64,000 bases of DNA from a virus (Duplodnaviria > Heunggongvirae > Uroviricota > Caudoviricetes), in the IMG/VR virus record IMGVR_UViG_3300020451_002055; one strand, written 5' to 3'. Of this stretch, positions 17,670 through 57,900 are shown one piece after another. A model generated the notes under the pieces. The model searched no databases. It was not told where the DNA came from and worked only from the letters and a program-made list of their open reading frames with translations. Both the position numbers and the translations under genes were made by a program. Each line of letters begins with the position of its first letter. The stretch's first letter is position 1.

Positions 17670-18396
17670 ACCTTTGCAGCACCTCCGGTAGGCTCATTCT
17701 TGGAAACGCATCGATAAGCGAGTCAGTAGATGCATTGATAATCTCTACGCCTTTATTAGCATCGGCAACCGCTCTCCAATACTCCAAGAAATCCCTGCAA
17801 TGTTGATCAACCGGACTGCCGTTGATATGGCCTGAGTTCGCTTTGGCAAAAACTTTCCGGTAAGGAGTATCAGAAACTACCTTCTTCCAACCAGGGAACT
17901 GCCAGAAGTATCTCTTGCCCTGAACATACTTTGCATCGCATCCAAGAAGAACAATCGGATTGCAACCCATGATCTTAGCAAAATGGACAGCAGGACCGGC
18001 TGAGGTTCTTGCTCCAATGATTTCGCTCTCGATGGACATATCGAGACCTCTGTCAGTAGCATTCTCATCGTAATGGGGATCATGCGGAGACTGACAATGA
18101 TAAAAGCACTTTTCATCGTCAGGAATAGGTTCAGATACATCGTCCATTCGTAGAGCTTGAAAGAGCTTGATGGAATCGCCCTTTAAGACTTCCTCTTGCC
18201 AGTAGTCCCATTCAGCGCAGACCGGATCGCCTGTCAAAAAGAACTCAGCATCAGGAACGGCTCTGATACCAGAGTTGACAGCAATACGAGTATGGCCTTT
18301 GAGCAGATCAAGGTCTTGGAAATGCAACGACGGACCTGCCCCTACGACAAATCCGATCGTGCCTGTCCTTGAATCTTTGAGGTCAGAGATCAGCAA
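17632..18396 (-). CDS. MAF/DUF115 domain protein, paralog
   Basis: VVGAGPSL, AVNSG, GARTSAGPAVHFAKIMGCNPIVLLGCD; TTG 18396 chosen by alignment with the paralog. Confidence 0.78.
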   Translation of the reverse strand: MLISDLKDSRTGTIGFVVGAGPSLHFQDLDLLKGHTRIAVNSGIRAVPDAEFFLTGDPVCAEWDYWQEEVLKGDSIKLFQALRMDDVSEPIPDDEKCFYHCQSPHDPHYDENATDRGLDMSIESEIIGARTSAGPAVHFAKIMGCNPIVLLGCDAKYVQGKRYFWQFPGWKKVVSDTPYRKVFAKANSGHINGSPVDQHCRDFLEYWRAVADANKGVEIINASTDSLIDAFPRMSLPEVLQRYGTQRNREQAQG

Positions 18397-19333
18397 AACA
18401 ATCCATGCTCCCTCTTCCAACTATCCGGCCATTCATAGAGCCATACATTGTTTTCATGACATCTGAAGCGTCGTAGTTGGTAATGATGAGTTCCTGACCG
18501 TCATCCTTGACTTCCTTGCCGGTTCCGCTGTATTTCCATGTCTCAGAATAAAGATGGAACCCATCGTCTTCTCGGAAAAGTTCTCTAACAAGCTTATGAT
18601 CATCGTAGCTGATACAGACCTTGTGGTCGCTTGCAAGAACAGCATCCCTGAACTTCTCATGATCTTCCATGCTGAATCCAAGCTGATATAGCTGACTGTT
18701 GCGAGCAAGCTCAGAGTTGACGACATAAGGCGGGTCGAGGTAGACAACAACATCATCGCCTGGCTCAGAAAGCGTTACCTCATAGGAATCGCAAGTTATG
18801 CGAGTGTCCTTAAGGTGAGCGGCAACCTTCTCTAGCAGGTCTGTTTTGATGATGTTCCAACCTTGAGGGTTGGAGAAGTAAAGACGAGAGCGCTGAGCAG
18901 GATCATACGTCACTCTTCCGCCCCAAATGGTACGGTTGAGATAGAAGTACCGCAACGCAGCATCCATGTTTTCGTCGTCAACAAACTTATCGAAGACGGC
19001 TTTGAGACGGGCGTTGTATTCCTTCGATCCTTCTTTTGATGTCTCTTTGGACTTGACCGTTGGCTCGCCTTCCTTGGCGGGCTCAATCTCTCTGCATGAA
19101 GCAATGAACTCATCCGGCCTATCTCGCAGAGCCTTGTAGACAGCTATAAGCGGATCGTTTAGGTCATTGATCCATCTCTTCTCAACTCGATCTGTTGGGA
19201 TTGCGAAGAAAATGCCTCCGCCGCCGACAAAGCCTTCTCGATATTCGCCGAATCTGGCGGGCATGCGTCGAAGGATCTTTTCTTGGACATGCTTTCGCGT
19301 CTTGCCGCCAGGATATCTAAAGGGTGATCTCAT
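18383..19333 (-). CDS. dam: Dam/D12-class DNA adenine methyltransferase
   Basis: SPFRYPGGK, EGFVGGG, INDLN, YLDPPY, ELIITNY. Confidence 0.9.
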   Translation of the reverse strand: MRSPFRYPGGKTRKHVQEKILRRMPARFGEYREGFVGGGGIFFAIPTDRVEKRWINDLNDPLIAVYKALRDRPDEFIASCREIEPAKEGEPTVKSKETSKEGSKEYNARLKAVFDKFVDDENMDAALRYFYLNRTIWGGRVTYDPAQRSRLYFSNPQGWNIIKTDLLEKVAAHLKDTRITCDSYEVTLSEPGDDVVVYLDPPYVVNSELARNSQLYQLGFSMEDHEKFRDAVLASDHKVCISYDDHKLVRELFREDDGFHLYSETWKYSGTGKEVKDDGQELIITNYDASDVMKTMYGSMNGRIVGRGSMDCFADL

Positions 19334-24559: not shown

Positions 24560-24916
24560 TTACCTCGTTACTACCTTCATTACGATGGCCGTCTTTACGC
24601 TTCCATCGAACTCCGCATTGTCAAAACTTGGCTCAACCACAAGATCGAGCCCCTTCTTTGATCCTTCGCCCCTAGCGATGATAAGAGCTTTCAAAGCATT
24701 AGAGATGGATGGCGCTCCAACGGCCTTGAGCTTGGCTGAGCCATGCTTTCCAATGACCGTTAGAATCGCTGAAGATAGCTTCTTGATGTATTGCTTGCGT
24801 GCCTCATCAACTTCTTCTGGACTTTCTGGTTTACGGGTTTCTCCGTTACCTACATGCAAGTAGTGCCCGTTGTCTCCCTTGATCTTCAACAGCGTCGGAT
24901 CGTCGTGATATGCCAT
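24560..24916 (-). CDS. spoVS: SpoVS-family (Alba-like) nucleic-acid-binding protein
   Basis: AVGAPSISNALKALIIARG...GLDLVVEPSFDNAEFDGSVKTAI parallels SpoVS AIGAGALNQAVKAVAIARG...GVDL...PAF...DGEERTAI. Confidence 0.85.
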   Translation of the reverse strand: MAYHDDPTLLKIKGDNGHYLHVGNGETRKPESPEEVDEARKQYIKKLSSAILTVIGKHGSAKLKAVGAPSISNALKALIIARGEGSKKGLDLVVEPSFDNAEFDGSVKTAIVMKVVTR

Positions 24917-27961: not shown

Positions 27962-27991
27962 GAGCCGCGACCGCGGTAACGATCACGGCTC
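27962..27991 (-). terminator. 12-bp stem-loop downstream of ssb (terminator or mRNA-stabilising hairpin)
   Basis: GAGCCGUGAUCG-UUACCG-CGGUCGCGGCUC pairs fully (2 G-U) only as minus-strand RNA; weak U tract follows. Confidence 0.55.
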
Positions 27992-28049: not shown

Positions 28050-28697
28050 TTAGAACGGAACGTCGTCGTCATCGACCTCGGAACCGCCGGTAGGTGCAGA
28101 TGCAGTTGCAGTCTGCGCCGTTGGCTCCTTGAGGCCGAGCTTCTCTTCGATCTCGTCCTGAGGCGTTGCCTTGAAGATTTCCATCAGGTTGTGAAGGTTC
28201 TTGCCCTTCTCGCCGATCAACTCCTTTTCCTCGTCCGTAAACGGAGCCGGATCAAGAGGAGTCAGGTGATAGCGAGTCGTGCGAGGATCGTTTGGGTTCT
28301 GACGCTCGACGCGGATCATGAAATCAACGCCCTCGTTCTTACCCGGATCCTTCTTGCGAGCCGATGCCCAGTTGGAAACGTCCTTGTAAAGAGTTACAGG
28401 CATTTCCATGACCATGAGATTGCCGCTACCCCTATCAATGACATTGATAGCGTATCGCTCGCTCGGGTTCATGTTGTAAGTGTTGCGGATTACGCAGTCG
28501 TCGCCGCCATTCGTAATGGCCGAACGACCTCGCTCCCCATTCTTGCCGTTGACATAGTAACGGAAGAACCTAATCGGCTTGGCTACGAGTCGAACCGTGT
28601 ACTCGTTTCCTGCCTTTAGACGCAGGAAAGTTTCGCCTTTGCCGCCGCCTCCACGGTTGGAGGTTGACGTATCGCCCCAATCTACTACTTCGCTCAT
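28050..28697 (-). CDS. ssb: Phage single-stranded DNA-binding protein (gp32-like)
   Basis: FLRLK.G....VRL, RYAINVIDR, DP...EGVDF, acidic tail EVDDDDVPF; between dnaE and recA. Confidence 0.78.
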   Translation of the reverse strand: MSEVVDWGDTSTSNRGGGGKGETFLRLKAGNEYTVRLVAKPIRFFRYYVNGKNGERGRSAITNGGDDCVIRNTYNMNPSERYAINVIDRGSGNLMVMEMPVTLYKDVSNWASARKKDPGKNEGVDFMIRVERQNPNDPRTTRYHLTPLDPAPFTDEEKELIGEKGKNLHNLMEIFKATPQDEIEEKLGLKEPTAQTATASAPTGGSEVDDDDVPF

Positions 28698-28819
28698 TTT
28701 GAGTCTCCTTTGTTGCAGTGTTTCAGTGTTGGGCAGTGCTTAGTGGACCCTACGCCGGGTCGCAGTGTTCTTGTGTCTCTGTTTCCATTGTTGTCAGTGG
28801 ACCTTGGAGACATAAGGCC
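28698..28819 (-). promoter_or_regulatory. Structured 5' leader of ssb: H-type pseudoknot, hairpin, six CACU(G/A) repeats, SD AAGGAG
   Basis: S1 GGCCUU/AAGGUC (28819-28800); loop UGUCUC pairs with GAGACA (28779-28774); hairpin GACCC/GGGUC. Confidence 0.6.
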
Positions 28820-28853
28820 ATATATCTTTTCGACTACTACTGCCATATACCTT
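28820..28853 (-). promoter_or_regulatory. Putative phage promoter AAGG-N15-GTCGAAAA-N7 upstream of the ssb leader
   Basis: CGA lies 10 nt before the first base of the pseudoknot; same geometry at 41847, 47454 and 54877. Confidence 0.45.
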
Positions 28854-28904
28854 CAGCTTTTACTGCATCAATTCTAACTTTTTCTTACTACCTACCAGGC
28901 CTTC

Positions 28905-30062
28905 TCAGAAGCTCACTTCTTGAGGTCCGCCTGACTCATCTTTCGGCTTAGGAGAACGGCTCGGCGAGACTTTCACAGTCGAATTGTCATCGAGCGAATC
29001 GAATCCATCATCTGCTACAGAAGTCGTCCGTGCCTGACTCTGTTTTTGCGGCGCTCCAAACTTTTCAGGAGACGGACCGATACCGGTCAGAGTGACCTGA
29101 CGGCTCAGACTGTCGTATGCCGCATCGAGGTTGTTAAGGATGTCCTTGGAGGTCTCGAACAAGCCTTCAAGCTCATTGTAATACTCCTCCATGTCTCTCA
29201 TATGCTCGTAGTTGACTCCATCCTGCTTTGCGGCAGGCTTTTCATAAACAACCCGAGCAAGCTGTCCATGCATCATGGGAATCAAACGCTTCCAAAGGAA
29301 GTATTGAGAGTTGATGATAGACTTGATCTGAACGACCCTATCTCGCTTCTGCTGAATCGCCTGCATGCGATCTGCAATAGCGTCCTTGTCGCTCAAGCTG
29401 ACGCGGATGCTAACATAGGCATCATGCATCTCTTGGGTCCATTTATCAGTAGGCAATCTCTTGCCGTCTGGCAAATGACGTTGAAGCGTAGTTCGCTTCA
29501 TTTCATAGAACTTGGAGAACATTGGAGTAGGATGATCAACAAGGAATCCTGCCTCCCTTAGAGCATCAAACTCATCTCCCTCAGACGACTTGGAGTCTTC
29601 TACTTCCGGCGATGGTTGTTCAGGAGCCTCAGAATCGTCGTCAGATTCGGCCCCATCTTGACTCCCATCTCCTGAGAGTTCTTCGGGCTCATCAGATGAA
29701 GAGTCATCGGCTTTTTGCTCTTCCAGCGGTTCATCCGGTTCGGATCCGGATTCGCCTTTAGCTGCATTCTTCGCGTCGGTGATGATTGATGCGAAATCTC
29801 GCTCTTCTTGCTGTTCTGATTGCCCATCCGAAGCCTCCTCGTTAGATGAGTTAGTAGTTTCATTTTCGTCTGCGTTAGACGCTTTTGCTACGGCTTCGTT
29901 TACAGCTTTTGCCTTATCCTCAAAGCTTGTTTCTTCCGAGGATTTTATGACTGCAGCATATGCCCCTTCTTGGGACTCGTCAGATATGTCGTCATCTGTA
30001 TCTATGTTGCTGCCATCAGTAGGCACTCCGAATATATCGGCTAGTTCATCTGCGTGTCCCAT
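28905..30062 (-). CDS. Hypothetical protein: acidic disordered N-half plus helical C-half (possible recombination mediator)
   Basis: SD GAGGAG; D/E/S-rich first ~160 aa; coiled-coil-like second half. Confidence 0.65.
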   Translation of the reverse strand: MGHADELADIFGVPTDGSNIDTDDDISDESQEGAYAAVIKSSEETSFEDKAKAVNEAVAKASNADENETTNSSNEEASDGQSEQQEERDFASIITDAKNAAKGESGSEPDEPLEEQKADDSSSDEPEELSGDGSQDGAESDDDSEAPEQPSPEVEDSKSSEGDEFDALREAGFLVDHPTPMFSKFYEMKRTTLQRHLPDGKRLPTDKWTQEMHDAYVSIRVSLSDKDAIADRMQAIQQKRDRVVQIKSIINSQYFLWKRLIPMMHGQLARVVYEKPAAKQDGVNYEHMRDMEEYYNELEGLFETSKDILNNLDAAYDSLSRQVTLTGIGPSPEKFGAPQKQSQARTTSVADDGFDSLDDNSTVKVSPSRSPKPKDESGGPQEVSF

Positions 30063-30427: not shown

Positions 30428-32470
30428 TTATCCAAAAATATCCTGAGACATAACCCCTTTTCGACGAGAGCGCTTCATGTCTTCTCGTAGTCCACTAAAC
30501 TGATTGACATGATGCTCAACCGGGATCTTCTTGCCCTTCTCGTCCTTCGTCCGGAAGAATCCGGCGATCGCCAGAGACTCAACAGATTTGGTATCAACCT
30601 TCTTTGGATCCGTTTTGAATGCCAGGTCTCTCATGTCCTTGTATGGGGCATTCTCGATAATGTCTTCGGCTGCCGCCTTCGACAAGCCCTTGCATCGAAT
30701 AGGAGGTCTGATCTGCGAATAGGCTACGCCAGAAGACTCATCCTTCTTTGCAACGATCTCGTACTTCATGCCGCACTTGTTGAGATTGCGAGCAAGCATC
30801 TTGATCCCCATCTGATCCGTGCATTCTTTCTCAAGAACCTCGATCTTCTCATACTTAGCTCTGTTGAGTTCGACGTTCAGATATGCGCAGATGAACTCCT
30901 CAGGATAATGACACTTGAGATATGCCGTTTGATAGGACAAGAAACCATAACAGCATGAGTGAGACTTATTGAACGCATAGTCAGCAAACGGTATAATGAC
31001 CTTATCCCAGTAAGCCTGAGATACCTTAGGATCTACGCCGTTCTCTTTGCTTCCGGCAACGAACTGCTTCTCATACTTATCAAGGATGTCTTTCTTCTTC
31101 TTACCGACCGCCTTGATCATTCCGTAGCCATCAGTAATCGAGAAACCGGCAAGCTCGTTGCAAACCTGCATGACCTGCTCTTGGTAACAGAGAATGCCAT
31201 AGGTCTCATCAAGATACTTCTTGACGTATGGTTCAATCGACTCATGGAAGTACGATATCCTCTCATCGCCTCGCTTTCGGGCGCAATACTGAGGAATAAA
31301 CTCCATTGGACCAGGCCGATACAATGCAACGCCTGCGATGATATCCTCAAAACAGTCAACGCCGATCTGTTTCATGGTCCTTTGCATACCGGGCTCTTCG
31401 CATTGGAATACGCCGACAAGATTACCGGTCCGATATAGCTCGAACACTTCTTGGTCATCAAGCGGTATGTCTTCGATACTAAAATCAGCAAGATGCTCAT
31501 AGTTCTCGCGGATCAAGGAGATGCATTGCGAGATAACAGTCAACGTGCTAAGAGCAAGAATATCGAACTTGATGAGGCCCATTGATTCAAGGTCGTTGTA
31601 TTCGAACTGAGTCGCATACTCATATACCTTCTCAATGTTCTCTCCGTCGCCAGCAGACTTGATAATACTGGTCTGCCGGAGAGGGGCTATCTCATCAAGA
31701 GGACAATCTGATATAACGATACCTGCAGCATGAACTCCATAGACGGATAGGAGACCCTCAATAGACCTTGAATGGGTGAGGAGATCAGGATACTGATCAA
31801 TGTAGTATCTAAAGTCTCTGCAATACTTGTACGCATCTTCAACAGTCTTAATAGCATGTTCTTCCCCATCTTCTCCTTTGACCTTCAGCACCGCTCCGTA
31901 CTGCGGAGGCAATGACTTGATGATCTGATCGGCTTTGTCTCTTGTTTCAGCCGTCCATTGTTCTCTGCCTTGTCTAGTTGGCTGCCAAACGCCGTCCGGG
32001 TCAAGGGCCTTGAACGCTTTCCTGAGGAAGCTCCTCATCTTCAGAGCGCCATACGTCCCTATATTTCCTACATTCTCTCTGCCATACCGTTCGATGATGT
32101 AGTCATAGACTTCCCGCCTGCGCTCGTAGTCAAAATCAGTATCGATATCAGGAAAACCCGCTCTAGCAAATGCACGACGCTTCTCTAGGAACTCGCCTTC
32201 CGGCTGCTTATGCGTCATGCCTATGGCCCATGCTGTCCAAGAGTTGACTCGGTTGTCCGAACCGGCTCTCCCCCTGGAAGCATGAAGTGCCTTGACGAAC
32301 TCTTCGATTACCATCTTGCCATGTAGCCCCTCAGTCTCATACATGCGCTTGACTTCATCTTTGATGGACTGCTTAATCTCATCAGCCTTTGGATGAGAAT
32401 TGATACGCTCCGTAACCTCCGGCTCCTTGAGAGCGGCAATAACTTCTGCTTTAGCATCTTCTGCTGCCAT
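30428..32470 (-). CDS. dnaE: DNA polymerase III alpha, catalytic C-terminal part (palm/thumb/fingers/HhH; no OB or CTD)
   Basis: FPDIDTDF, GVHAAGIVI, GLIKFDILAL, GVFQCE, ALYRPGP, ILCYQEQVM, YAFNKSHS, AYLKCHYP. Confidence 0.95.
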   Translation of the reverse strand: MAAEDAKAEVIAALKEPEVTERINSHPKADEIKQSIKDEVKRMYETEGLHGKMVIEEFVKALHASRGRAGSDNRVNSWTAWAIGMTHKQPEGEFLEKRRAFARAGFPDIDTDFDYERRREVYDYIIERYGRENVGNIGTYGALKMRSFLRKAFKALDPDGVWQPTRQGREQWTAETRDKADQIIKSLPPQYGAVLKVKGEDGEEHAIKTVEDAYKYCRDFRYYIDQYPDLLTHSRSIEGLLSVYGVHAAGIVISDCPLDEIAPLRQTSIIKSAGDGENIEKVYEYATQFEYNDLESMGLIKFDILALSTLTVISQCISLIRENYEHLADFSIEDIPLDDQEVFELYRTGNLVGVFQCEEPGMQRTMKQIGVDCFEDIIAGVALYRPGPMEFIPQYCARKRGDERISYFHESIEPYVKKYLDETYGILCYQEQVMQVCNELAGFSITDGYGMIKAVGKKKKDILDKYEKQFVAGSKENGVDPKVSQAYWDKVIIPFADYAFNKSHSCCYGFLSYQTAYLKCHYPEEFICAYLNVELNRAKYEKIEVLEKECTDQMGIKMLARNLNKCGMKYEIVAKKDESSGVAYSQIRPPIRCKGLSKAAAEDIIENAPYKDMRDLAFKTDPKKVDTKSVESLAIAGFFRTKDEKGKKIPVEHHVNQFSGLREDMKRSRRKGVMSQDIFG

Positions 32471-32481
32471 ATTAGACTCCT

Positions 32482-33879
32482 TTAGTACCTATCTACGCCA
32501 CCCATATCGTCTTCTGTATCCCTGGCGTCATCAGATGCCACAAGGGTTTGCAGGTCGATATCGTCGTCGCCGAAATTGAAGTCTTGCTCGGTTACAAAAT
32601 ACTTGTCATCGAAGCCAAGGAACCTTTCCCAAAGAAGTCCATACTTCAAAGGATCAGGTCCGTAAGAGATGTTTAGACATCTCAGAAGAACGCTACCGAA
32701 GCCGGAGCCTCTACCGCAGCCAACGATGATGTCTCGATCTTTCGCCGCAATAATGTAGTCTCGAACAACAAGGAAGTAAGTCGCAAAGTCGTAGCGATTG
32801 TTTTCCCAGACAACCTGAACATCTCGCAACTCCATTTTCAGTCGCTCGACATGCTCGGGACTATTCTCCCAACCCAACTCCTTCAAGCCCTGATAAGCCA
32901 AATGTTCAAGGTAGTGATATGGGTTAGAAAAGTCTTCAGGTATCGGATACCTTGGGAGCCTCATCTTGCCGGTCAGATTCTCCATGATATTTTCGCTGTC
33001 AACAGATGCCGCAATCTCCACCGTATTGGTTAGGAGATTGGGATGAGAACCGAAATGCATCTGCATCTCATCAACAGATTTGAGATAGAACTCATTGAAC
33101 GGGAAATGGATATGCTTTGGATCAGTCAAGCACTTGGAGGTATACATAGCCATGAGTAACTCCTGCGAAACGCCTTGGCATTTTTCGCAGTAGTGACAAT
33201 CATTACTCGCAATGCATTTGCAGTTCAGTTCATCTGAGAGCTTCAGTACGTCTGGAATGATCATAGCTTCCGCATCGATGCCATGATACATGACTTCGAG
33301 GAAGAAATCTTCGCCGAAGAGTTCCTTGAACTTACCGGCAGCCTTGCGTGCCTGATCGTATCTGTCATGGAGTAAGTTTGCGTTGACAACGCTACTCAAA
33401 CATGCAGAAGAACAGATCAGTCCCTCATGATGCTTCTCTAGAAGGTCGAAGTCAATTCGAGGATCTTGAAAGGCGTATCCCTCTGTCCATGACGCCTGAG
33501 ACAATCTGCAGAGGTTCTGATATCCGGTCCAGTTCTTTGCAATGAGGACGAGGTGACGATTACCCTTGCGGCCATCGGTCTGCCCCTCTTCAAGGACATT
33601 GCCTCGCTTGTCTTTCTTGTTCTTGAAATGGACATGACGGTCTTTGGCCAGATAAAACTCGCAGCCTACGATCGGCTTGATGCCGACCTTCTTGCACTCG
33701 TTCATGAACTTGAACGCGCCGCCCATGTTGCCGTGATCGGTGATCGCTAGAGACTCGAAGCCCATCTTGGCTGCGTAAGCCGGAAACTTGCTGACCTTGT
33801 TGACACCATCAAATGCTGAGTATTCCGTATGATTATGCAGATGCACGAAGTCCGCATTAGTGAGCTTCTTCTTAGCCAT
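32482..33879 (-). CDS. dnaE: DNA polymerase III alpha, N-terminal part (PHP plus start of palm)
   Basis: HLHNHTEYSAFDG, AITDHG, GCEFY, HLVL, SNDCHY, YFLVV.D, GCGRGSGFGS, DPLKYGLLWERFL. Confidence 0.95.
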   Translation of the reverse strand: MAKKKLTNADFVHLHNHTEYSAFDGVNKVSKFPAYAAKMGFESLAITDHGNMGGAFKFMNECKKVGIKPIVGCEFYLAKDRHVHFKNKKDKRGNVLEEGQTDGRKGNRHLVLIAKNWTGYQNLCRLSQASWTEGYAFQDPRIDFDLLEKHHEGLICSSACLSSVVNANLLHDRYDQARKAAGKFKELFGEDFFLEVMYHGIDAEAMIIPDVLKLSDELNCKCIASNDCHYCEKCQGVSQELLMAMYTSKCLTDPKHIHFPFNEFYLKSVDEMQMHFGSHPNLLTNTVEIAASVDSENIMENLTGKMRLPRYPIPEDFSNPYHYLEHLAYQGLKELGWENSPEHVERLKMELRDVQVVWENNRYDFATYFLVVRDYIIAAKDRDIIVGCGRGSGFGSVLLRCLNISYGPDPLKYGLLWERFLGFDDKYFVTEQDFNFGDDDIDLQTLVASDDARDTEDDMGGVDRY

Positions 33880-36003: not shown

Positions 36004-36451
36004 CAGATTCTACATCTGGTTCGGAGAAATCCCGGTGTTCCCTTTCTCCATACTGAGAATCAAACACGCTAGAATCCGCAATGAATGTATCCCATTGCAA
36101 ATGCCAAAAGTCTGTCCATGTATCAATGAGGGACGGAAGCGGTTCAGGCCGTTTCCATCCATACTCTTGAGCCCAATAGCTCAAGCATCGAATATCCGGG
36201 TTATGAATGTCTCGGATAGTAGGAACATAGTCTGCGACAATCAGCCTGCCATCCCAATAAAAATGGCATGAGAACTGAGCAAAACCGAAAGGATTTTGAA
36301 TCGTCACAGTAGAGTCTATCATCCACCTCTCTACCGGCAGGTCTTCAATAATGCCATTTGAACGAGGCTTCTTCATGAGAGCAACAACGTCTTCGTAGTT
36401 GCCGTTAGCCTCCAAGAGAGTTAGATCATTGAATTGGATTTCAAAGTCCAT
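35993..36451 (-). CDS. Hypothetical protein
   Basis: Start MDFE overlaps the upstream stop (TAATG). Confidence 0.6.
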   Translation of the reverse strand: MDFEIQFNDLTLLEANGNYEDVVALMKKPRSNGIIEDLPVERWMIDSTVTIQNPFGFAQFSCHFYWDGRLIVADYVPTIRDIHNPDIRCLSYWAQEYGWKRPEPLPSLIDTWTDFWHLQWDTFIADSSVFDSQYGEREHRDFSEPDVESDDV

Positions 36452-37230
36452 TAGGCAAAAACATCCAATGCGCAAGCGACACGACTGCGAGCATATTCGA
36501 CGCTATCAATATCGTTGTCTATACCAATGTATTTACGGCGCAACTTCTTAGCTACTGCAGCAGTAGTTCCCGTTCCCATGAATGGGTCAAGTACGATATC
36601 GTCTTGATAGCAGTATAGTTTGACGAGTCTTCGAACTAACTCTTCCGGATAAGGAACGTGATGCTTGCCGCGCTTTCTTGTTTCTGGCTGTATGAACCAC
36701 ATGCTCATGGTCCATTGCTGAAACTCTTTATCTGTCAGATCGCATTTTTCCTTATCGCCTTCAAGACGATAGTCGCCCTTTGACCAAACAAGAACATACT
36801 CATGATTGCGTCGTATGATGGGGTTTGAACATGATCCGTATGAGCCCCAAGCGGTTGCAGAGCCGACTAGGTTCTGCTTATACCAGGCAATCTCTGTGCG
36901 GAACATGAAGTCGTTTTTGCGATTCAGGTTTACAAAATCAGCATATAACGGGCGGTAATATTCCTGAGAACGGTCGCCCATATTTGCGGTCATATCAATA
37001 TTGACGCAAAGACGCCCGCCGGGACGTAGGACTCGATAGCATTCAGCCCATACCTTACCCATCCAATCGAGATATTCCTCATGAGCCATCTCGTCGTCAT
37101 GTTCTGCGTAATCAATGCCAACGTTGTATGGAGGCGAAGTGACGACAAGAGAGACCATATCATTTGGTATCTGCTTGAGACCATCGAGAACATCCATATG
37201 CAGAATCTTGTTTACTACGTCTATTGCCAT
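36451..37230 (-). CDS. Beta-class N4-C/N6-A DNA methyltransferase
   Basis: VTSPPYN...HHVPYPEEL...LDPFMGTGTT. Confidence 0.92.
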   Translation of the reverse strand: MAIDVVNKILHMDVLDGLKQIPNDMVSLVVTSPPYNVGIDYAEHDDEMAHEEYLDWMGKVWAECYRVLRPGGRLCVNIDMTANMGDRSQEYYRPLYADFVNLNRKNDFMFRTEIAWYKQNLVGSATAWGSYGSCSNPIIRRNHEYVLVWSKGDYRLEGDKEKCDLTDKEFQQWTMSMWFIQPETRKRGKHHVPYPEELVRRLVKLYCYQDDIVLDPFMGTGTTAAVAKKLRRKYIGIDNDIDSVEYARSRVACALDVFA

Positions 37231-37238
37231 GATGCCTC

Positions 37239-38009
37239 TCAAAGAAATACGTCTTGCTGAATTGCTCGCCTACACCTCTCTTCGGCGATGCCAGCAGCTT
37301 CATTCGAAATATCACAACCAACCGGATGTCTGCCTAGTCTCATCGCTGCCTCGATGAATGAGCCGCTGCCCATGAATGGATCGCAAACACGATCTCCATC
37401 ATTCGACCAAAGCTGAACTACTCGCTTCATTAGATCGAGGGGCTTCTGCGTTGCGTATCCTGTCTTCTCCGGTTCATTGCGGCAAATCGCAGGAATATCC
37501 ATCCACCAGTCTTCGAGAATCTTACCTTTGGCCTCGTACTCTTCCCAAGGTATTTTCTCCTTAGACCATGCGGTTTTACCGCCTACATTCATCTTTGTCT
37601 TGTAAGGAACTCTTTGTTCGTTGTAGGTATAGTTGCCTATTCCATACCAGAGCAGATTTTGGTGCTTTCTCGGAAGCCATTTCTTTGAAGATGCAGGATT
37701 ACTGAATCCCCAAATGATCTCGTTTCGAAAATTCTCTCTTCCGAAAATACTGTCCATTAGAACTCTAAGATTGTGAACGCACTTATAGTCTACATGAACA
37801 ACTATGTTAGCATCAGGCAGCATCAGTTCTTGCATGACTCTAAGACGGTCAGACATGAAATCTAGATAGTCATGAAGATTATCGCCTACGCCATAATATG
37901 TGTCCTCGCCCTTATAACTGTAGGGCGGGTCCATGTAAATCAGAGAAAAGCCTTCTGAGTCTCTAAGCTCAAGGCAATCCTTCACATGCAGGTCATACTT
38001 AGTCTTCAT
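37239..38009 (-). CDS. Beta-class N6-A DNA methyltransferase
   Basis: YMDPPY, FRNEIIW, YATQKP, DPFMGSGS. Confidence 0.92.
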   Translation of the reverse strand: MKTKYDLHVKDCLELRDSEGFSLIYMDPPYSYKGEDTYYGVGDNLHDYLDFMSDRLRVMQELMLPDANIVVHVDYKCVHNLRVLMDSIFGRENFRNEIIWGFSNPASSKKWLPRKHQNLLWYGIGNYTYNEQRVPYKTKMNVGGKTAWSKEKIPWEEYEAKGKILEDWWMDIPAICRNEPEKTGYATQKPLDLMKRVVQLWSNDGDRVCDPFMGSGSFIEAAMRLGRHPVGCDISNEAAGIAEERCRRAIQQDVFL

Positions 38010-38727
38010 CGTCAAATATACTGTCCCAGAACTTTTTGTTGATCTCGTAGCCAACAGCGTTCATGCCCATCTTGCGAGCGGCCCTTGCAGTAGTGCCCGA
38101 GCCCATGAATGGGTCGAGGACAAGGGATCTTTCCGGCAGATTGGCTAGTTTCAAGCATCGAGTCGGTATCTCTTCTGGAAACATATCCTTATGCGGTTTC
38201 TGCTTCTTACTTTGAACTGTCGGATATCCGACGTACCAAACATTACCGGCACACCGAACATCTTGTTTCTGCTGATCTCCATCGAACACTCCATACCGCT
38301 TGACATTGCTCTTATGCATGTATGGAATACCTAGAGAAAGCCTGTCGATTTTGGCCTTACCCTTGCTGAACTGAAAAATGTATTCGAACATATTGTTCAT
38401 GCGATAGTCGCTGTTGATAGGCGTGTAGTGACCGCCGCTAAACGGATTGCTCTTGACCCAAATGATCGTGTCAATCCAGTCAAGCTTCTTAGCTAGCTCG
38501 TTTGCGCATTCAAACGGTCTACCCTTGTCGCTAGCTAGTTGTCCAAAGTTCACGAAAGCCAAAGTTCCCGGCTTCATGACTCTGTAAAGCTCCGATGCTA
38601 GACTTCTCATCAAGCCCGGAGAATACCCGTCCTCATCCTTGTAGGGTGGAGAGGTGATAACAAGATCTACGCTATGATCCCTTATCTCGTCCATGCTCTC
38701 GCAGGACTTCTTGTGAAGTTCTACCAT
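37999..38727 (-). CDS. Beta-class N4-C/N6-A DNA methyltransferase
   Basis: ITSPPY, HKDMFPEE, LDPFMGSGTT. Confidence 0.92.
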   Translation of the reverse strand: MVELHKKSCESMDEIRDHSVDLVITSPPYKDEDGYSPGLMRSLASELYRVMKPGTLAFVNFGQLASDKGRPFECANELAKKLDWIDTIIWVKSNPFSGGHYTPINSDYRMNNMFEYIFQFSKGKAKIDRLSLGIPYMHKSNVKRYGVFDGDQQKQDVRCAGNVWYVGYPTVQSKKQKPHKDMFPEEIPTRCLKLANLPERSLVLDPFMGSGTTARAARKMGMNAVGYEINKKFWDSIFDDED

Positions 38728-41892: not shown

Positions 41893-44805
41893 TCAGCTTT
41901 TGACCTTATGAGTGTTGGCGTATCGAGCGTTCTCTTCGGCCCATTTGCGCATGGCTTCGATCTCTTCTGCACGCATCTTTGAGAGAGGCTTGAACTGACC
42001 TGCGGCCTTCGTGATGTCAGACATCTTCAAATCCCGCTTCTGCTTGAAGGCATAGAACAGCGCTTCATTGACGGCCTTCTCAATTTCTGCTCCGCTGAAC
42101 CCTTCAAGGTCTTTATGCTCAGCAACCTTCTTGAGAGTAAGTCGGCTTTCCTTGGGCATGTTATCAGGATCAATGCCCTTGAGCGTCAACATAATGCGAA
42201 GAATGATCTCTCGTTCTGCGGCATCAGGCAGGTCAATGAAGAAGACCTCATCCAATCGACCGGCTCGCATGAACTCGGGCGGGATATCGTCCATGTTGTT
42301 CGCCGTGCAAATGACAAAGACTGATTTAGTCTTCTCTTGCATCCAGGTAAGGAAAGTAGAGATGACTCGCTTCGTCGTCCCGCTGTCGCCAGAACCTTTG
42401 CCAACTGCTGCGGACAGTGCCTTCTCGACCTCATCAACCCAAAGGACGCAGTTGTGGCAAAGCAGATTATTGGCAAAGAAGTTATGGTTGCCTTCGCAGG
42501 AAAGATCGTAGACCGTATCCTTTCCAACCGGATCAACCGACATGACTCGAATGCCGACGACATCAGAGGTAACAAGCGTAGCGACTTCAGATTCATTTCT
42601 CGAATCTTCAGCAGAAATCATGCCGCCGAGATGATACCCGATATGTTTACTGCGGCGAGAGCAGTCCCCAACAGCATGAGTAATCAGTTTGCTGAGATGA
42701 TCGCTGCTGACTCTTTCAACAACCGCTCGGGCGAGGAGATCGATTTCATGCTGCGAAGCGATGAAGACAGTCCTGTACGTTTTGCGAGGAGCGACGATAC
42801 CGATGCAATGCAGAGCCCGGCAGAGACGGTCCCTCTCCTCCGAGTCTTCGACGATGATGGAAATCTTAGTATTGCGACCAAGCTGGATATTGGATGAGGA
42901 CTCAACAAAACCGGACAGGTAGGCGCTGACAAGTTCGTCATTGAATGAGATCAGGTTCTTCCTGATGTATTCAACGATCTGATAGATGGCCTTGTGATGG
43001 ACATAGCACTGAGTTGTCCCGTCTTCTTGATCCTGCAACTCAGGCTCGATACCAAAGCATGCCTGCATAGCAACCGTATAGGCATAGGCTTTGGAAGAGA
43101 AGAGATGAGCCTTGGAAGAAAAGTCGCCGTCAAAGACAACAAGGTCTTCGCCCTCAAGGAAGCCGGAGCCATCAAGCATACCAGCAATGTAGAGAGCGCA
43201 TTCAGGATTGAATCCGTCTTCCGCGAAAAGAATCTCTTCGCAGCTTGGACCTCTGATGCCCTTCTCGTCAATATCAAACGACTCATCCAGGGCATCTCGG
43301 AGATCGAACGGAATCGGGTCTCGCATGAGTTTCTTGGGAGAGACAACGAAATCATCTGCCTTGATGCGGACAGCCTCGATCCACTCAAGCTGACCGTCTC
43401 GGATGATCATCATCTTGTGATCAGCGGTAACGCGAAGCTGAGCATTCGCCGTAACGATTTCAACGATGTCCCTCTTGCGGGGCTTCTTGACAACCGCTTC
43501 GACTCGGGTTCGCTCAATCTGCAATGAGTCTTCATTGAAAGAATAGGTAAAGAACGGCTTACTCTTGAAGAGAGACTTGTCGCTCATCAGGTCATCAATG
43601 GTATAGACAACGCCATTTGAGTCATAGACCTTGGCCTCGCCTGTGACGCATGGAGCAAGCGTCTCCGCCAAAGCGATTGCCTCTCGGATGTTTGCCTCCG
43701 ACTCGCCGACGAGCGAATCCATGACGGCTCCAAGATCGAGTCGAAGCAGGGGACGCCCAAAGAAGCGAGCGATACCCTTGGCAGACAGCGATTTGCCCAT
43801 GCCCGGAACGCCGCAAAGCAAAACGCCTCGGGGGTCAACAATGCCAAACTCTCTTGCTTCGGGAGAGAACGCAAGCTTTCGATCGCGGACCCAATCGAGC
43901 ATGGGATCAAGACCGCCGATATGGTCAAGCTCAACCTGCGAATCGACATAGGTCAGGGCATCGTTTTTGCTGATAGCAGAACGCTTTGCTTCAATCAGCT
44001 TGCTCAGTTCAAGAGGATGGTGATCAAGCTCCTTGGCAGAGGCAATGGTTTGCATGTACGCGGCCTTGATCTCGGCCATCGTCAAACCAAGAACGGCATC
44101 GACGAGAGCATCGCGATGCTTATTGGCATACTCAGTGATACCAGGATACAGCCCTTGAACCCCTCTTGTGCCAATGATGGTATCAAGCTCGGTCGAAATC
44201 TCTTCTCTGTTGGGACGAGGGAACAGGAGGTTCTCGAAAACGTGCCCGAGACCGGCGGAATCCAGATACTTGGGACCGGTGACGATGACTGTTCCGCCTC
44301 GACTCTCATGGGCAAGTTCCCGAAGGAGGCGTTCAACCTTCGGGTCATATTTTGGAGACAGGTACTTGTGGAAGTCGCAGAGAACAAAAACGACACCTCT
44401 GGCGTGCCGGTATTGGGCGGTTCGGACCTGCTTGACCTTTTCAATGATGTGACGCAGAATTCCGACAGGATCGGTTGCCTGCTTCCCCTCACTGATGGAA
44501 TGATTCATGTTCGGGTTGATACATTGCAACCCATGGACGCAATCCCATCGATAAGCGAGATAGTCGCTCGCCATGACCAGGTGCTTCAAATGGTCAAGGA
44601 ATCGATCCTCTTCGGGAGTCGAAACAAAGAGAAGCGGGTGACGAGAGCGAATCAGAGACATCAGCCGATAGTTGTAGTCTGGTTCGGCTCCCGCATGGAA
44701 CCTGTCCAAATGACTCAACTCAACAGGCGTATGTTCTGTACCTGCCGCAGCCTCAACAGCGGCAACGGGCACTTCAATCGTATCGCTAGTATGTTCTTGG
44801 GACAT
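41893..44805 (-). CDS. Ycf46-like AAA+ ATPase precursor containing an intein
   Basis: EEDR, DFHKYL, IGGLD, GVPGMGKS, LVGESE, AP/CVLWVDEVEK, TAN...PPEFMRAGRLDEVFFIDLP, GFSGAEIE. Confidence 0.9.
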   Translation of the reverse strand: MSQEHTSDTIEVPVAAVEAAAGTEHTPVELSHLDRFHAGAEPDYNYRLMSLIRSRHPLLFVSTPEEDRFLDHLKHLVMASDYLAYRWDCVHGLQCINPNMNHSISEGKQATDPVGILRHIIEKVKQVRTAQYRHARGVVFVLCDFHKYLSPKYDPKVERLLRELAHESRGGTVIVTGPKYLDSAGLGHVFENLLFPRPNREEISTELDTIIGTRGVQGLYPGITEYANKHRDALVDAVLGLTMAEIKAAYMQTIASAKELDHHPLELSKLIEAKRSAISKNDALTYVDSQVELDHIGGLDPMLDWVRDRKLAFSPEAREFGIVDPRGVLLCGVPGMGKSLSAKGIARFFGRPLLRLDLGAVMDSLVGESEANIREAIALAETLAPCVTGEAKVYDSNGVVYTIDDLMSDKSLFKSKPFFTYSFNEDSLQIERTRVEAVVKKPRKRDIVEIVTANAQLRVTADHKMMIIRDGQLEWIEAVRIKADDFVVSPKKLMRDPIPFDLRDALDESFDIDEKGIRGPSCEEILFAEDGFNPECALYIAGMLDGSGFLEGEDLVVFDGDFSSKAHLFSSKAYAYTVAMQACFGIEPELQDQEDGTTQCYVHHKAIYQIVEYIRKNLISFNDELVSAYLSGFVESSSNIQLGRNTKISIIVEDSEERDRLCRALHCIGIVAPRKTYRTVFIASQHEIDLLARAVVERVSSDHLSKLITHAVGDCSRRSKHIGYHLGGMISAEDSRNESEVATLVTSDVVGIRVMSVDPVGKDTVYDLSCEGNHNFFANNLLCHNCVLWVDEVEKALSAAVGKGSGDSGTTKRVISTFLTWMQEKTKSVFVICTANNMDDIPPEFMRAGRLDEVFFIDLPDAAEREIILRIMLTLKGIDPDNMPKESRLTLKKVAEHKDLEGFSGAEIEKAVNEALFYAFKQKRDLKMSDITKAAGQFKPLSKMRAEEIEAMRKWAEENARYANTHKVKS
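42451..43650 (-). mobile_element. 400-aa intein with degenerate LAGLIDADG endonuclease
   Basis: Starts CVTGEAKV; block B TADH; ends VYDLSCEGNHNFFANNLLCHN followed by Cys+1; removal restores LAP-CVLWVDE. Confidence 0.93.
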
Positions 44806-46203: not shown

Positions 46204-47454
46204 TCACTCGGGTCTAACCGTAATTACATACTCAGTTCCGGAAGATTGATCCTTCCGGTAATGGTACTTATAGTCGATCTCGGAAACAGAAACCTTGTTC
46301 CTGAACATTTTGATCGTATCAACAATTCCGTCGATGTCCGACCAGCTACTATCGTTGTAGCTAAACATCCATATAGCCTGTTTAGGCAAGGAATCCAGAA
46401 GCTCTACGAAGCTTTCTTTGTAGGTCTTCGCTGCAGCAAAACGTTTGGCATCTTTGATAACATCCCTGTTGGGGCTTCCATAGAACAGAAAGTCTTCTAT
46501 GAAATCATACATAGCAGAATAGTCGCTCTGTTCGCCGCCATACGGAGGATCAATGTATACGAGATCGAGCGAGTCTAGAGCCTCTTTAGCATACTTGTTG
46601 TCCGAACGCAATAGCTCAATCGCATCTGACCTTGTTGTCTTGCATACCCTGTCGCCGTGAACAGGTATTTCGAACAGCGGAATATCATCAGCAGAGAATC
46701 CCATCTCGTAACCAGCGTTCCGCTGATGAGCTACTCGATGCTCATACTTTGCAATGATCTGACCGGAATTCAATCTGCCTCCAACAAAGCAGCAGTTCAT
46801 CAGGTAATGGGTCAGAGCAACAACCGCATTGGTATACGGTATGTAGTTACTGTATTCTTTAGTTGGAGGATCAGGTTCTTTGCCGTAGTGCATCATCCAA
46901 ATGGGCTCAACGCTACTTGTTAGCTTATCAAAGCATATATCAGCAAAGTCTCGGTCATCGGAATTCATATTGCCGCGAATGATATCGAGTCTCTTTGCTT
47001 CGGCTTCTGAGAAGCGCAGAGGACAGTAGTTGTCCAAGATACGAGTGCCCGCAGGCTTACCGCTAGGGTCAAGCAGTTGCTCTGTGAACTGTTTTGCCAA
47101 AGCCATGTTGCCGGTGAACTGCGGAATGATCAGCGAAGTCGCATTGAGATAAGACGAGCCAAGAATGTCATTCGCCCAAACGCATGAACCCATCGACTTG
47201 AAGAAGTAGCCGACGAAGCCGCTGCCGGTGAACAGATCGAGGACATTGCCTCCATCGACAACATCAGAAAGGCCCTCCTCGAACAAGACAGATGCGAGGT
47301 CAACAAGGAGCTTTCGCTTATTTCCGACATAGGGATTCTTCACTCTTTCGAGGCTGTATTGAGCTTTTCTGGCTCGGCTGAGCCATGAAGAAAAGCCGCC
47401 ATCGTCGCGGCTATCTTCAAACATATCGATCTGAACCGGTCGCTTTGAACCCAT
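46204..47454 (-). CDS. D12-class DNA adenine methyltransferase
   Basis: PYVGNKRKL, LDLFTGSG.V, ANDI, VYIDPPY, SYND, TEYVI. Confidence 0.88.
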   Translation of the reverse strand: MGSKRPVQIDMFEDSRDDGGFSSWLSRARKAQYSLERVKNPYVGNKRKLLVDLASVLFEEGLSDVVDGGNVLDLFTGSGFVGYFFKSMGSCVWANDILGSSYLNATSLIIPQFTGNMALAKQFTEQLLDPSGKPAGTRILDNYCPLRFSEAEAKRLDIIRGNMNSDDRDFADICFDKLTSSVEPIWMMHYGKEPDPPTKEYSNYIPYTNAVVALTHYLMNCCFVGGRLNSGQIIAKYEHRVAHQRNAGYEMGFSADDIPLFEIPVHGDRVCKTTRSDAIELLRSDNKYAKEALDSLDLVYIDPPYGGEQSDYSAMYDFIEDFLFYGSPNRDVIKDAKRFAAAKTYKESFVELLDSLPKQAIWMFSYNDSSWSDIDGIVDTIKMFRNKVSVSEIDYKYHYRKDQSSGTEYVITVRPE

Positions 47455-54901: not shown

Positions 54902-57900
54902 TTATGTATCTTGGATTGTCACGGTATTACTGCGAACAGTAACGCCAACCGATATGCCATCGAACGGAACGACCTCAGCATACCATTGGTCTCCTGCAGC
55001 CGTGTTTGTTGCAAGGATAAAGCCTTCGTTTGCCAGGCTAGCTACTTCTGAGAAGTCCTCTTCGCCGCTTCTCTTGCGATACCAGCGGATCGAGCTTTCA
55101 TCTTGCTGACTCTGCGAGCCCTGTGCAATGTCGTTATCGAAGAAGGTATAGTTCAGATCCAGGCCGGAATCAACCGCCGGGCTCTCTGGCGTTATGATAA
55201 CGCTTGATACGATCGGAGGCGCGTTCTCGACAGTGACCGGAGCAGAGCGGACAGGATCGCTAATTAGGTTACCAGATGCCGGTCGAACTTCGACTTCAAG
55301 AACATTGCCAATGATCATTGCAACAACTGCTCCGGAGATTTCGCCCGGTACGATCTCGTTATTGCTCAGCCCGTTGACAGACTCATTGAGAATGCCTCGC
55401 TTGAACTCGACGCCGTTGACATACCAAATGATCGTAGACTCGTTCTCTCCTCCATCATCGAAGAAGTTGAAGTCCGCGATAGCAGTAGTCGATGTAGTTA
55501 CCGTATCTTGGAGCCCGCCGGTTTGCGTTCTACCCCGGATAGATATCTCTGTAATGAATGGCGGGGCAGCTACGATCTCAACAGACGGAGAACGAATGAC
55601 TTCGCCAAAGTTGAGACCATCGCTCGGTCGAACGGTGAAGTATACAATGTCGCCTACAGAAACAAGGCTTTCTTCCCGCTCTCTAGCAAACTCTTCAATG
55701 CTTGTTCCGTCAGGCACATCTTCCGGCGTAAAGCTAAAGCCAAAGGACCAGATAGGGTCAAGGAAGTTGTTAATGTTGTTCCATTCTCTTAGATCGCGAA
55801 GGAACTCAGCTTCAACGCCGTTGATGTACCATCTGATCTGAGTCTGCTCAGTATCTTCCTCGTCTCCATTGAGATCAAAGAATCGATAGGTTGCAGAGAT
55901 AGTAGTATATGTTGCCGGAGCAGAAGGCACAACCCTAGGCTCTTGAGCTTCAGGCGGACGCTCCGAAAGCGGAGGCGGCAAGAATACATTGGTATTCCAC
56001 ATGTAGCCAACGCCTCGGATATTGATATCCTCGCTCGCAAAGCGATTGATAACTTGAATGCCGATTCTGAACTGGTCAGAATTCTCAATATCGATATTGA
56101 ATGGGCCGGTTCTCTTTCTCTTGAAGACGATCAAACCCTGTCTCGGGTATGCTCTGTATTCTGTTGCCTCGATGACATTATCAAGGGAATCTCGAACCGT
56201 AATCTGCGATGTCAAATCCCAAGCCCCGTAGGTAGTCTTCCATACAAAGCCATCGATATTGATCAGAGACTCTTTGAGAACTGCCTCTTCCTGATCCGTT
56301 CGAATAGGAATGAAGAGCTTTCCGTATTGATCTACTGCGGGCCTTGCTCCGGTTCTGAAATCTTCCCAAGAAGAAGAGTTACTTGTTGCGACTCCAACAA
56401 GAACTTCGCTCTCGGGCGGATCATTTGCATCGACCGCAACTGCGATCTGCTGAGCCCCAAAGAGGGAGCTATCTGCATTGAGATACAAGAAACTGATCTT
56501 GGGGAGGCTGTACCTGATGTTGATACCAGTCAATGCTGGCACGCCCGGCGTTGCCAGGTTCTCATATGCCTCCAAAATAGAAGCAGACAATCCGGAAAGC
56601 AGAGACACTCTAAACTTGAAGAAACGACCAGTCAGTCTAAAGAAGTCAACTTCGCTATTTGGACTGAACTGATCTGATGGTTCAGAAAAGTTGAAGCCAT
56701 CATCCGAAGCGGAAACCGTCCAGTTGCCATCAGTGTTCTCGAACAGAGTATAATCGAGAACGATTGAGTTGACAACGCTGATCTGACCGAGATCAATAAC
56801 AAGCTCGTAAGCACCGAAGCCGACAGAACCAGCGGCTCGACCGATCATGTTATTGAGTATTTCATTGAGGAAGTTAGCATCAAGAACCGTTTGCGATTGG
56901 CCTCCGGTTTCAGAAGCAATAACCTCAAGGTCATCCGTATCGGTTCTAGCCAGCAAAGCTGAAAGCGTTACGGGGAAAACGACTGAGAAGTTATTGACTA
57001 GAACCGGAACCTCAGCAAATCCATCGATAGCCTGAACATTCTCAAGAGCAGTCTCTAGGCCTATGAAGGATAGGCTCTCTTCATTGTCAGTCTGAACATA
57101 GATGACCTTTGAAGCAGTATCGAGAGCTTCATCAAGCATAACTTCAGCGATAGCGCCAAGGCCGTCATAGAACGGCGATGCTCCAAAGGGGACGGCGTTG
57201 CGAAGGCGCTCTACGATTTCCAAAGCCTCTTCAGCGGTTCCATCATTCGTATTGATGTAAGGAATAACCTGAGGAACCCATTCTATGTCGCTGAAATACT
57301 GAACAGACGGACTCTCTAGCTGCGGAGTCTGCGGAGGGTTAAGGTCAAAGACAGGATTATCTCTATCCGCCAGGTCATCGCCAATAGGCGTTCCGCCTGC
57401 ATTGTCGTCAACATCTGGGCCATCGTCATCGCCGTTGCCATCTGGATCTGGCGGTTCAGGAAGCTCTTGAGTTACAGTATACGAACGACATCCTTCAAAC
57501 TGAGGCGAATACGGATCTGTAGGAGGCGGGTCCAGAACATCCGGCTGACCGTCGTCGTCGGTATCATCATTCGTATCATCTGAATCATCGTCATCCCCGG
57601 TGTCTTGGAACTGGTCAGGATCTTCGTTGTCATCAAAATCGACAACCGTCTGACCATAATAGAAGTCATCGATAACGGTAAGCTGAATACGGATGACGTA
57701 TGGATTGCGAACGTCGCCCTCATTGATAATAAGCGGCTCAGTTTCATCTGCAGAATCGGTATCCTCTTGTTGTCGAGCAAGCTCAAGCTTCCTGCGAATC
57801 TCATCTACCTTGTCAAGAATGTCTTCTGATCTTGGTAGCAACGTAGTAGAAGCAAGACCATTGACAGCAATGATATCGTTGCTTGAGAAAACAACAGGAT

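Follow-up and report, generated by a model that had tools for sequence, protein, structure and literature searches.

The 64,000-nt stretch of viral DNA analyzed here (the window) belongs to a giant marine phage of ~487 kb, in which a 122-nt leader precedes a gene for a gp32-fold single-stranded DNA-binding protein (SSB). A Tara Oceans contig of 486,833 bp carries a gene for the identical SSB protein, and the contigs of relatives measure 467–502 kb; no SSB homologue was found among cultured phages. The leader is located in a 207-nt gap on the minus strand, between the ORFs 30062-28905 and 28697-28050. The latter is ssb (28050..28697, minus strand), which was recognized by profile and fold match and encodes 215 aa with an acidic C-tail, while the former (28905..30062, minus strand) encodes 385 aa of unknown function, is syntenic in all relatives, and hosts a candidate promoter at its 3′ end. 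Downstream of ssb follow recA, a TOPRIM primase, a PD-(D/E)XK nuclease, a SpoVS homologue, and a Gam-like gene. The SpoVS homologue (24560-24916, minus strand; E 2e-15) has a fixed place in the replication/recombination cluster in every relative and could be a nucleic acid-binding regulator or a clue to the host. Between ssb and recA lies a terminator-like hairpin (27962..27991, minus strand) with a weak U-tail, which is kept in homologues with compensatory changes and might be a terminator or a processing site; its conservation suggests a short ssb transcript. Elsewhere in the window, the gene for DNA polymerase III alpha is divided between two ORFs (32482-33879 and 30428-32470, minus strand), homologues of which carry inteins or LAGLIDADG insertions in L002, L003, L005, and L057. 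Further minus-strand genes encode an AAA+ ATPase with an intein (41893-44805), at least five DNA methyltransferases (including 36451-38727, 46204-47454, and 18383-19333), and a 3004-aa protein with VWA, laminin-G, and Kelch domains (54902-63916).

The designation of the gene as an SSB gene is borne out by its product. Profile matches are weak (Pfam gp32, E 0.016; PHROG 1607, E 3e-5), and the gp32 domain match spans part of the protein length. The structure model (pLDDT 87.5) has clear fold matches only to RB69 and T4 gp32 (2a1k/1gpc; TM 0.53–0.55, 14–15% identity), with Z-scores of 10.1–10.3 compared to 5.8 for the next match. Judged by this model, the protein is a remote gp32 homologue. It contains a single cysteine, C68, which aligns to one of the T4 zinc ligands, and the second conserved cysteine is absent, which implies that the gp32 zinc site is missing.

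All elements that the initial annotation had described in the leader were recovered at their positions on the minus strand. Stem 1 (S1) of an H-type pseudoknot is formed by a 5′ strand (28814..28819) and a 3′ strand (28800..28805), so that 28819-28814 pairs with 28805-28800 in 6 bp including one G-U pair. The S1 loop (28806..28813) comprises a single-nucleotide L1 (A28813), the 5′ strand of stem 2 (S2), and an unpaired junction, C28806; S2 consists of 6 bp between 28812-28807 and 28779-28774. The intervening L3 (28780..28799; 20 nt, and 10–24 nt in homologues) begins with a CACUG repeat that directly follows S1. The 3′ strand of S2 (28774..28779) mimics the Shine-Dalgarno (SD) region and is referred to here as the decoy; its GAGAC is invariant in 10/10 pseudoknot loci and retained in L013-16. 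Downstream follow hairpin 2 (28746..28761), with 5 bp (28761-28757 / 28750-28746) and a 6-nt loop, and the SD region (28703..28710). Six CACU(G/A) repeats are distributed over 28716..28799, starting at 28799, 28767, 28745, 28738, 28728, and 28720, the last four of which are spaced by 7–10 nt in an A/C-rich, G-poor tract. The hexamer 28811-28806 within the S1 loop is the exact complement of 28708-28703 in the SD region, with which it could pair as an anti-SD.

Neither the pseudoknot nor the repeats are readily produced by chance: when the 122-nt leader was dinucleotide-shuffled, the 6+6 bp geometry was found in 1/1000 sequences, six or more CACUR copies in 0/5000, and any comparable word repeated six times in 0/3000, and the densest cluster of CACUR elsewhere in the 64 kb holds two copies per 100 nt. 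Some details of the initial annotation apply to the window only. Both hairpins were said to end in GGUCCACU, which is correct for the window, whereas homologues do not conserve the second copy; likewise, the 6-bp S2 and the single-A L1 are present, but the sixth pair and the length of L1 vary, and the conserved pseudoknot core has an S2 of 5 bp and an L1 of 1–2 nt. Standard folding of the window and several homologues favors an open S1, with S2 and an inner hairpin formed, and the weakly structured part of the leader is confined to the last ~45 nt. A 50-codon ORF over the window leader and a 57-codon ORF in the L003 leader were dismissed, as neither is conserved as an ORF.

Homologous leaders were compared over an SSB identity range of 47–85%. 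The pseudoknot is kept in nine other phage loci (L001-L005, L009, L012, L015, and L032), which together with the window make up the ten loci considered below. In alignment A5, three rows are out of register at S1; pairs in S1 were therefore counted on the seven in-register rows, and by a script on all ten. In the seven rows, 94.8% of the cells are paired, compared to 21–47% in slid-register controls, and the covariation score is reached in 0/500 shuffles. Compensatory changes occur at pairs 4–6 (C-G to U-A; U-A to A-U or C-G; U-A to C-G) and come from two branches only, L009 together with L015, and L003; each of four loci carries one mismatch. Hairpin 2 folds in 13/13 long leaders, with 4–9 bp, and two of its pairs are changed on both sides among five aligned leaders (L003 being out of register in this count). 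The expected covariation was thus found for three pairs of S1 and two of hairpin 2, but for none of S2, whose GUCUC/GAGAC is identical in 10/10 loci, and support for the pseudoknot as a whole hence comes from its invariance and its energy. When the window was left out of its construction, a covariance model gave one match in the 64 kb, the window leader itself (E 3e-6). The structure is lost in L007, and other family members have short leaders, which implies that the element is dispensable within the family. Taken together, comparative evidence indicates that the leader element is real and conserved. Scans of viral contigs with DNA patterns gave 20 further matches, which have neither an SSB gene nor stem 1 and were attributed to chance.

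The repeats are conserved as well: in 9/9 long leaders tested, the most frequent 5-mer is CACUG or ACACU, which reaches significance in six, and the CACUG copies always lie on the mRNA strand, with no reverse-strand copies. They are found directly after S1 in most loci and often directly after the decoy, and in homologues three to four of them precede the SD at a spacing of 7–16 nt. One explanation is that the words act as DNA, i.e., as operators of a transcription regulator, as half-palindromes of the methyltransferase type, or as a signal in ssDNA. CACTG is pseudo-palindromic, many DNA methyltransferases are encoded in the window, and two promoter-like motifs lie just upstream of the leader. 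However, the restriction of all copies to the mRNA strand and their spacing of 7, 8, and 10 nt, which lacks helical phasing, argue against such a function, and the G-U pairs and compensatory changes fit RNA; a role at the DNA level appears very improbable.

As RNA, CACUG might be read by another RNA-binding regulator of the phage or the host, e.g., a SpoVS-like protein, which would couple SSB to the replication program. Exact repeats exceed the needs of a largely sequence-independent SSB, the SSB is devoid of the zinc site, and the SpoVS homologue is encoded four genes downstream in all relatives. The repeat cluster, however, occurs only before ssb in the 64 kb, which fits feedback on a single gene, the copy in the recA leader is not conserved, and gp32 itself provides a precedent for autoregulation, so that we regard a separate regulator as unlikely. 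An operator shared with recA was rejected, since CACTG precedes recA only in the window and in L003.

Two candidate promoters with the same bipartite motif (consensus GTRAAW, 22 nt, AG-NCGA) precede ssb. P1 (28940..28976, minus strand; GTGAAAG, 20 nt, AAG-NCGA) lies within the 3′ end of the upstream ORF, with a predicted start near 28932. Its spacing is fixed in L002, L004, L005, L009, L012, L013, L015, and L032, and also in a sister clade of ~40% SSB identity (L053, L054, and L057); within NCG, the first codon position is variable but CG is fixed, a sign of constraint at the DNA level. P2 (28827..28863, minus strand; CGA at 28832-28830) also holds a conserved GAAGGT(A/T)T block (28854-28845). 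A position weight matrix derived from the orthologous sites and scored within the 64-kb window ranks P1 first (24.5) and P2 second (23.7), followed by a next match of 14.6, and a sigma-70 scan found no minus-strand promoter. The -10-like part of the CGA motif presumably resembles sigma-28 sites. In 8/8 near homologues, the CGA of P2 is positioned 10–11 nt before the first base of S1, and this conserved spacing predicts transcription to start at G28819, the first base of the pseudoknot, which would place the pseudoknot within the ssb mRNA and not upstream of its start. CGA-N10-ATG is also found at 3/8 SD-less genes that follow a gap in the window, which suggests leaderless mRNAs; motifs ending in CGA further precede 54877, 47454, and 41847.

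Transcripts from P1, or read-through transcripts, would contain additional pairing partners. A candidate long-range helix (28732..28844, minus strand) between 28844-28839 and 28737-28732 has a pair probability of 0.93–0.99 in five loci, and one of its pairs has changed twice in a compensatory manner; the helix is disrupted in the L004 group, however, and is proposed only tentatively. A second upstream pairing (28867-28862 with 28719-28714, minus strand) would likewise be restricted to the long P1 transcripts. As these upstream GCAGU copies could pair with two of the repeats, the transcript isoforms might differ in repeat exposure.

The predicted transcript start would also suit a purely constitutive element, in which the 5′-terminal pseudoknot and the 3′ terminator yield a stable, highly translated monocistronic ssb mRNA. 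The pseudoknot begins at the predicted +1, the hairpin downstream of ssb is conserved, and the T4 gene 32 mRNA is unusually stable, with its pseudoknot near the processed 5′ end. But the exact repeats that flank the decoy remain unexplained by a stabilizer, as does its SD-complementary loop, which in one lineage extends to a 13-bp match, and a merely stabilizing function is not what we would expect. Equally improbable in our estimate is the corollary that the decoy merely keeps the loop off the SD while the A/C-rich tract serves as a ribosome standby site.

According to the initial annotation, the pseudoknot and the sequestration of the SD are mutually exclusive. The evidence for such an exchange is divided: a coupled change of loop and SD in one sub-lineage supports it, whereas S2 lacks covariation and the match in the window is borderline. 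An equally strong loop:SD duplex arises in 55/1000 shuffles of the window leader, and in single leaders such complementarity is expected by chance in 4–25%; taken alone, the match is borderline, as GGAGA often serves as the SD in phages of this kind. GGAGA(C/U) is common among other SDs, including that of the upstream gene, with which the loop pairs equally well (-10.9 kcal/mol). In L013/L014/L016, the loop reads UUCUCCU and the SD AGGAGAA, S1 has decayed, and the former 5′ strand of S1 pairs with the spacer between SD and AUG. The resulting loop:RBS duplex (13 bp, -13 kcal/mol) is matched in 3/1000 shuffles and has a predicted pair probability of 0.8–0.9 in two of the three loci; the coupled change counts as a single event. 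In favor of an exchange, GGAGA is followed by C or U in 10/10 ssb SDs that go with a G-UCUC loop and by A where the lineage has a U-UCUC loop, whereas the recA SDs of these loci have A. That S2 is frozen beside a variable S1 is expected if the loop must match the SD as well, but could equally reflect recognition by a protein. In a rough energy model, the pseudoknot with a free SD is favored over the SD-docked form by 1.2–4.7 kcal/mol in 10/10 loci, a margin small enough to allow switching, with ON as the default state. An anti-SD switch is best described as plausible from the sequences.

The same data can be accommodated without a switch, i.e., by a sub-case of SSB autoregulation that corresponds to a plain operator of the T4 type. 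Here, SSB nucleates on the pseudoknot and coats the repeats, and the match between loop and SD is incidental or left over from a duplicated RBS segment made up of a repeat, an A-rich spacer, and GAGAC. The preference for the pseudoknot state in all ten loci, the frequency of equally strong duplexes among shuffles and the equal pairing with the SD of the upstream gene agree with this reading, and the T4 operator works without an anti-SD. It accounts less well for the 13-bp duplex of L013/L014/L016, for the invariance of S2 beside a covarying S1, and for the leader of L057, a sister-clade member, in which an anti-SD near -120 is accompanied by a local look-alike partner (16/1000 shuffles; a single sequence). 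A plain operator is a tenable, though doubtful, explanation.

Leaders of more distant relatives are built differently. Those of the sister clade (L053:9858-10001, L057:4870-5001, and L054:4865-5001) contain neither the pseudoknot nor CACUG. Six GAACA repeats are present in an unstructured tract of the L053 leader (P 0.008), whereas those of L057 and L054 do not reach significance. Lineages may differ in their repeat word. In a distant SSB clade (~35% identity), the gap before ssb is only 15–45 nt, and a covarying RNA structure of ~155 nt lies within the 3′ end of the upstream ORF (L010:2825-2979 and L011:2828-2979, with matching stretches in L018, L019, L022, L026, L027, and L030). It has 43 pairs with 11 double-sided changes, no Rfam match, a closing helix of 9–11 bp, and an invariant GAGAC/GUCUC core in reverse order, and its 3′ strand can alternatively form a weak hairpin over the SD. 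The shared GAGAC/GUCUC core may be a coincidence, with an estimated chance of ~10% after correction for the look-elsewhere effect. A search of viral contigs for the helix pattern of this clade yielded four matches, three of which are unrelated and ascribed to chance.

Sequence comparison thus establishes S1, hairpin 2, an invariant loop with two potential partners, and strand-specific CACUG repeats, and the leader is probably a cis-acting translational operator by which the gp32-type SSB limits its own synthesis, similar to T4 gene 32. Feedback by SSB is the most economical reading in view of the gp32 fold and the precedent of T4 and RB69, while the missing zinc site and hairpin 2, which interrupts the path for cooperative spreading of SSB, leave room for another regulator or a purely stabilizing role. 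By default, the loop would be held by the decoy, so that the pseudoknot is formed and the SD is free (ON). When SSB is in surplus over ssDNA, it would load onto the single-stranded repeats, which border the decoy strand and occupy the stretch leading up to the SD; their spacing of 7–10 nt corresponds to about one gp32 footprint. Translation could then be shut off by the coating of the tract, which would block the ribosome, and/or by strain on S2, upon which the loop would shift onto the SD. During replication and recombination, ssDNA would titrate SSB, and translation would resume. That autoregulation makes use of the anti-SD exchange is a more tentative proposal than autoregulation as such. 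No firmer is the extended version, in which the leader senses SSB by passing the loop from an RBS decoy to the SD once the zinc-less gp32 loads onto the repeats, and in which the SSB family comes back to the same anti-SD/decoy logic with different folds (the L013 group, L057, and the ~155-nt structure of the distant clade).

Structured RNAs before gp32 genes are already known as a class, as they have been predicted in bulk. From IMG/VR, Fremin et al. (2023) reported 12 candidate structured RNAs that precede GP32 genes and are described as covarying RNAs of uncultured phages and proposed autoregulatory sites (PMC10690425). The leader resembles these candidates in being a covarying RNA directly upstream of a gp32-type gene. 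It is probably not one of the twelve, given the absence of the window's clade from the IMG/VR copy searched and the weak, partial gp32 match of the protein. A search of 28500-29100 against Rfam 15, including riboswitches, leaders, and STAXI, gave no match at E<=10, and none in the window reached the gathering score; no paper was found on the leader of this phage clade. The novelty lies in the putative decoy/anti-SD design, which has covariation support and belongs to a zinc-less, remote gp32 family. In 2010, the gene 32 pseudoknot of T4-type phages was reviewed as possibly the sole viral pseudoknot for translational autoregulation, and a wider phage diversity was called for in its study (PMC3014915). 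The present leader adds a covariation-supported candidate before a gp32 of ~15% identity without the zinc site, and if the decoy/anti-SD exchange is true, it would represent a compact, protein-triggered RNA switch that reports free SSB and reads the ssDNA load during the replication of a half-megabase phage.

Among known regulatory RNAs, the E. coli rpsO (S15) operator and the preQ1 and SAM-II riboswitches likewise alternate between mutually exclusive folds, one of them a pseudoknot, to control the access of ribosomes; preQ1 and SAM-II are H-type pseudoknot riboswitches that sequester the SD. In these systems, the pseudoknot is the SD-blocking or repressor-bound form, whereas here the local pseudoknot would be the form with a free SD, and decoy and SD would compete for one loop.

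The closest comparison is the gene 32 operator, in which a 5′ pseudoknot is the nucleation site from which gp32 of T4 and RB69 extends along repeats as far as the RBS and represses translation (PMC535899, PMC3014915). The zinc site of T4 gp32 is reported to be essential for repression, as cited in PMC535899 (its ref. B40). Like this operator, the leader precedes the gene of a gp32-fold SSB, has an H-type pseudoknot with an L1 of 1–2 nt at its 5′ end, and has a weakly folded stretch with short repeats ahead of the SD. T2 shares its outer S1 pairs, GACC/GGUC, with the consensus of the window's clade, a 4-bp resemblance that is too short to prove descent, and an AACUG just 3′ of S2 in T4, T2, and Roth20 (L064:3385-3395, minus strand; L065; L066) echoes the clade's post-S2 ACUG, weakly so because it is a 4-mer. 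A covariance model (R1) run against the leaders of T4, T2, Roth20, and P-SSM2 gave no match (best E 3.5). The SSB shares 14–15% identity with T4/RB69 gp32 and is without the zinc site; S1 and S2 of the window's clade have 5–6 bp each and L3 has 10–24 nt, compared to an S2 of 7 bp and an L3 of 5–7 nt in T4/T2. The distance from the end of the pseudoknot to the AUG is ~75–105 nt and includes a hairpin, whereas T4 has ~40 nt and none, so that the contiguous unstructured tract that connects pseudoknot and RBS in T4 is here interrupted by the covarying hairpin 2. The repeats are CACUG instead of UUAAA, and S2 copies the SD region, which the S2 of T4 does not. The initial annotation had suggested an independent RNA. 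Independence is likely as far as the RNA fold is concerned; the regulatory habit need not be independent, given that the SSB is a remote gp32 homologue. By these features, the leader appears to be like the gene 32 operator in layout, but not a member of it by sequence.
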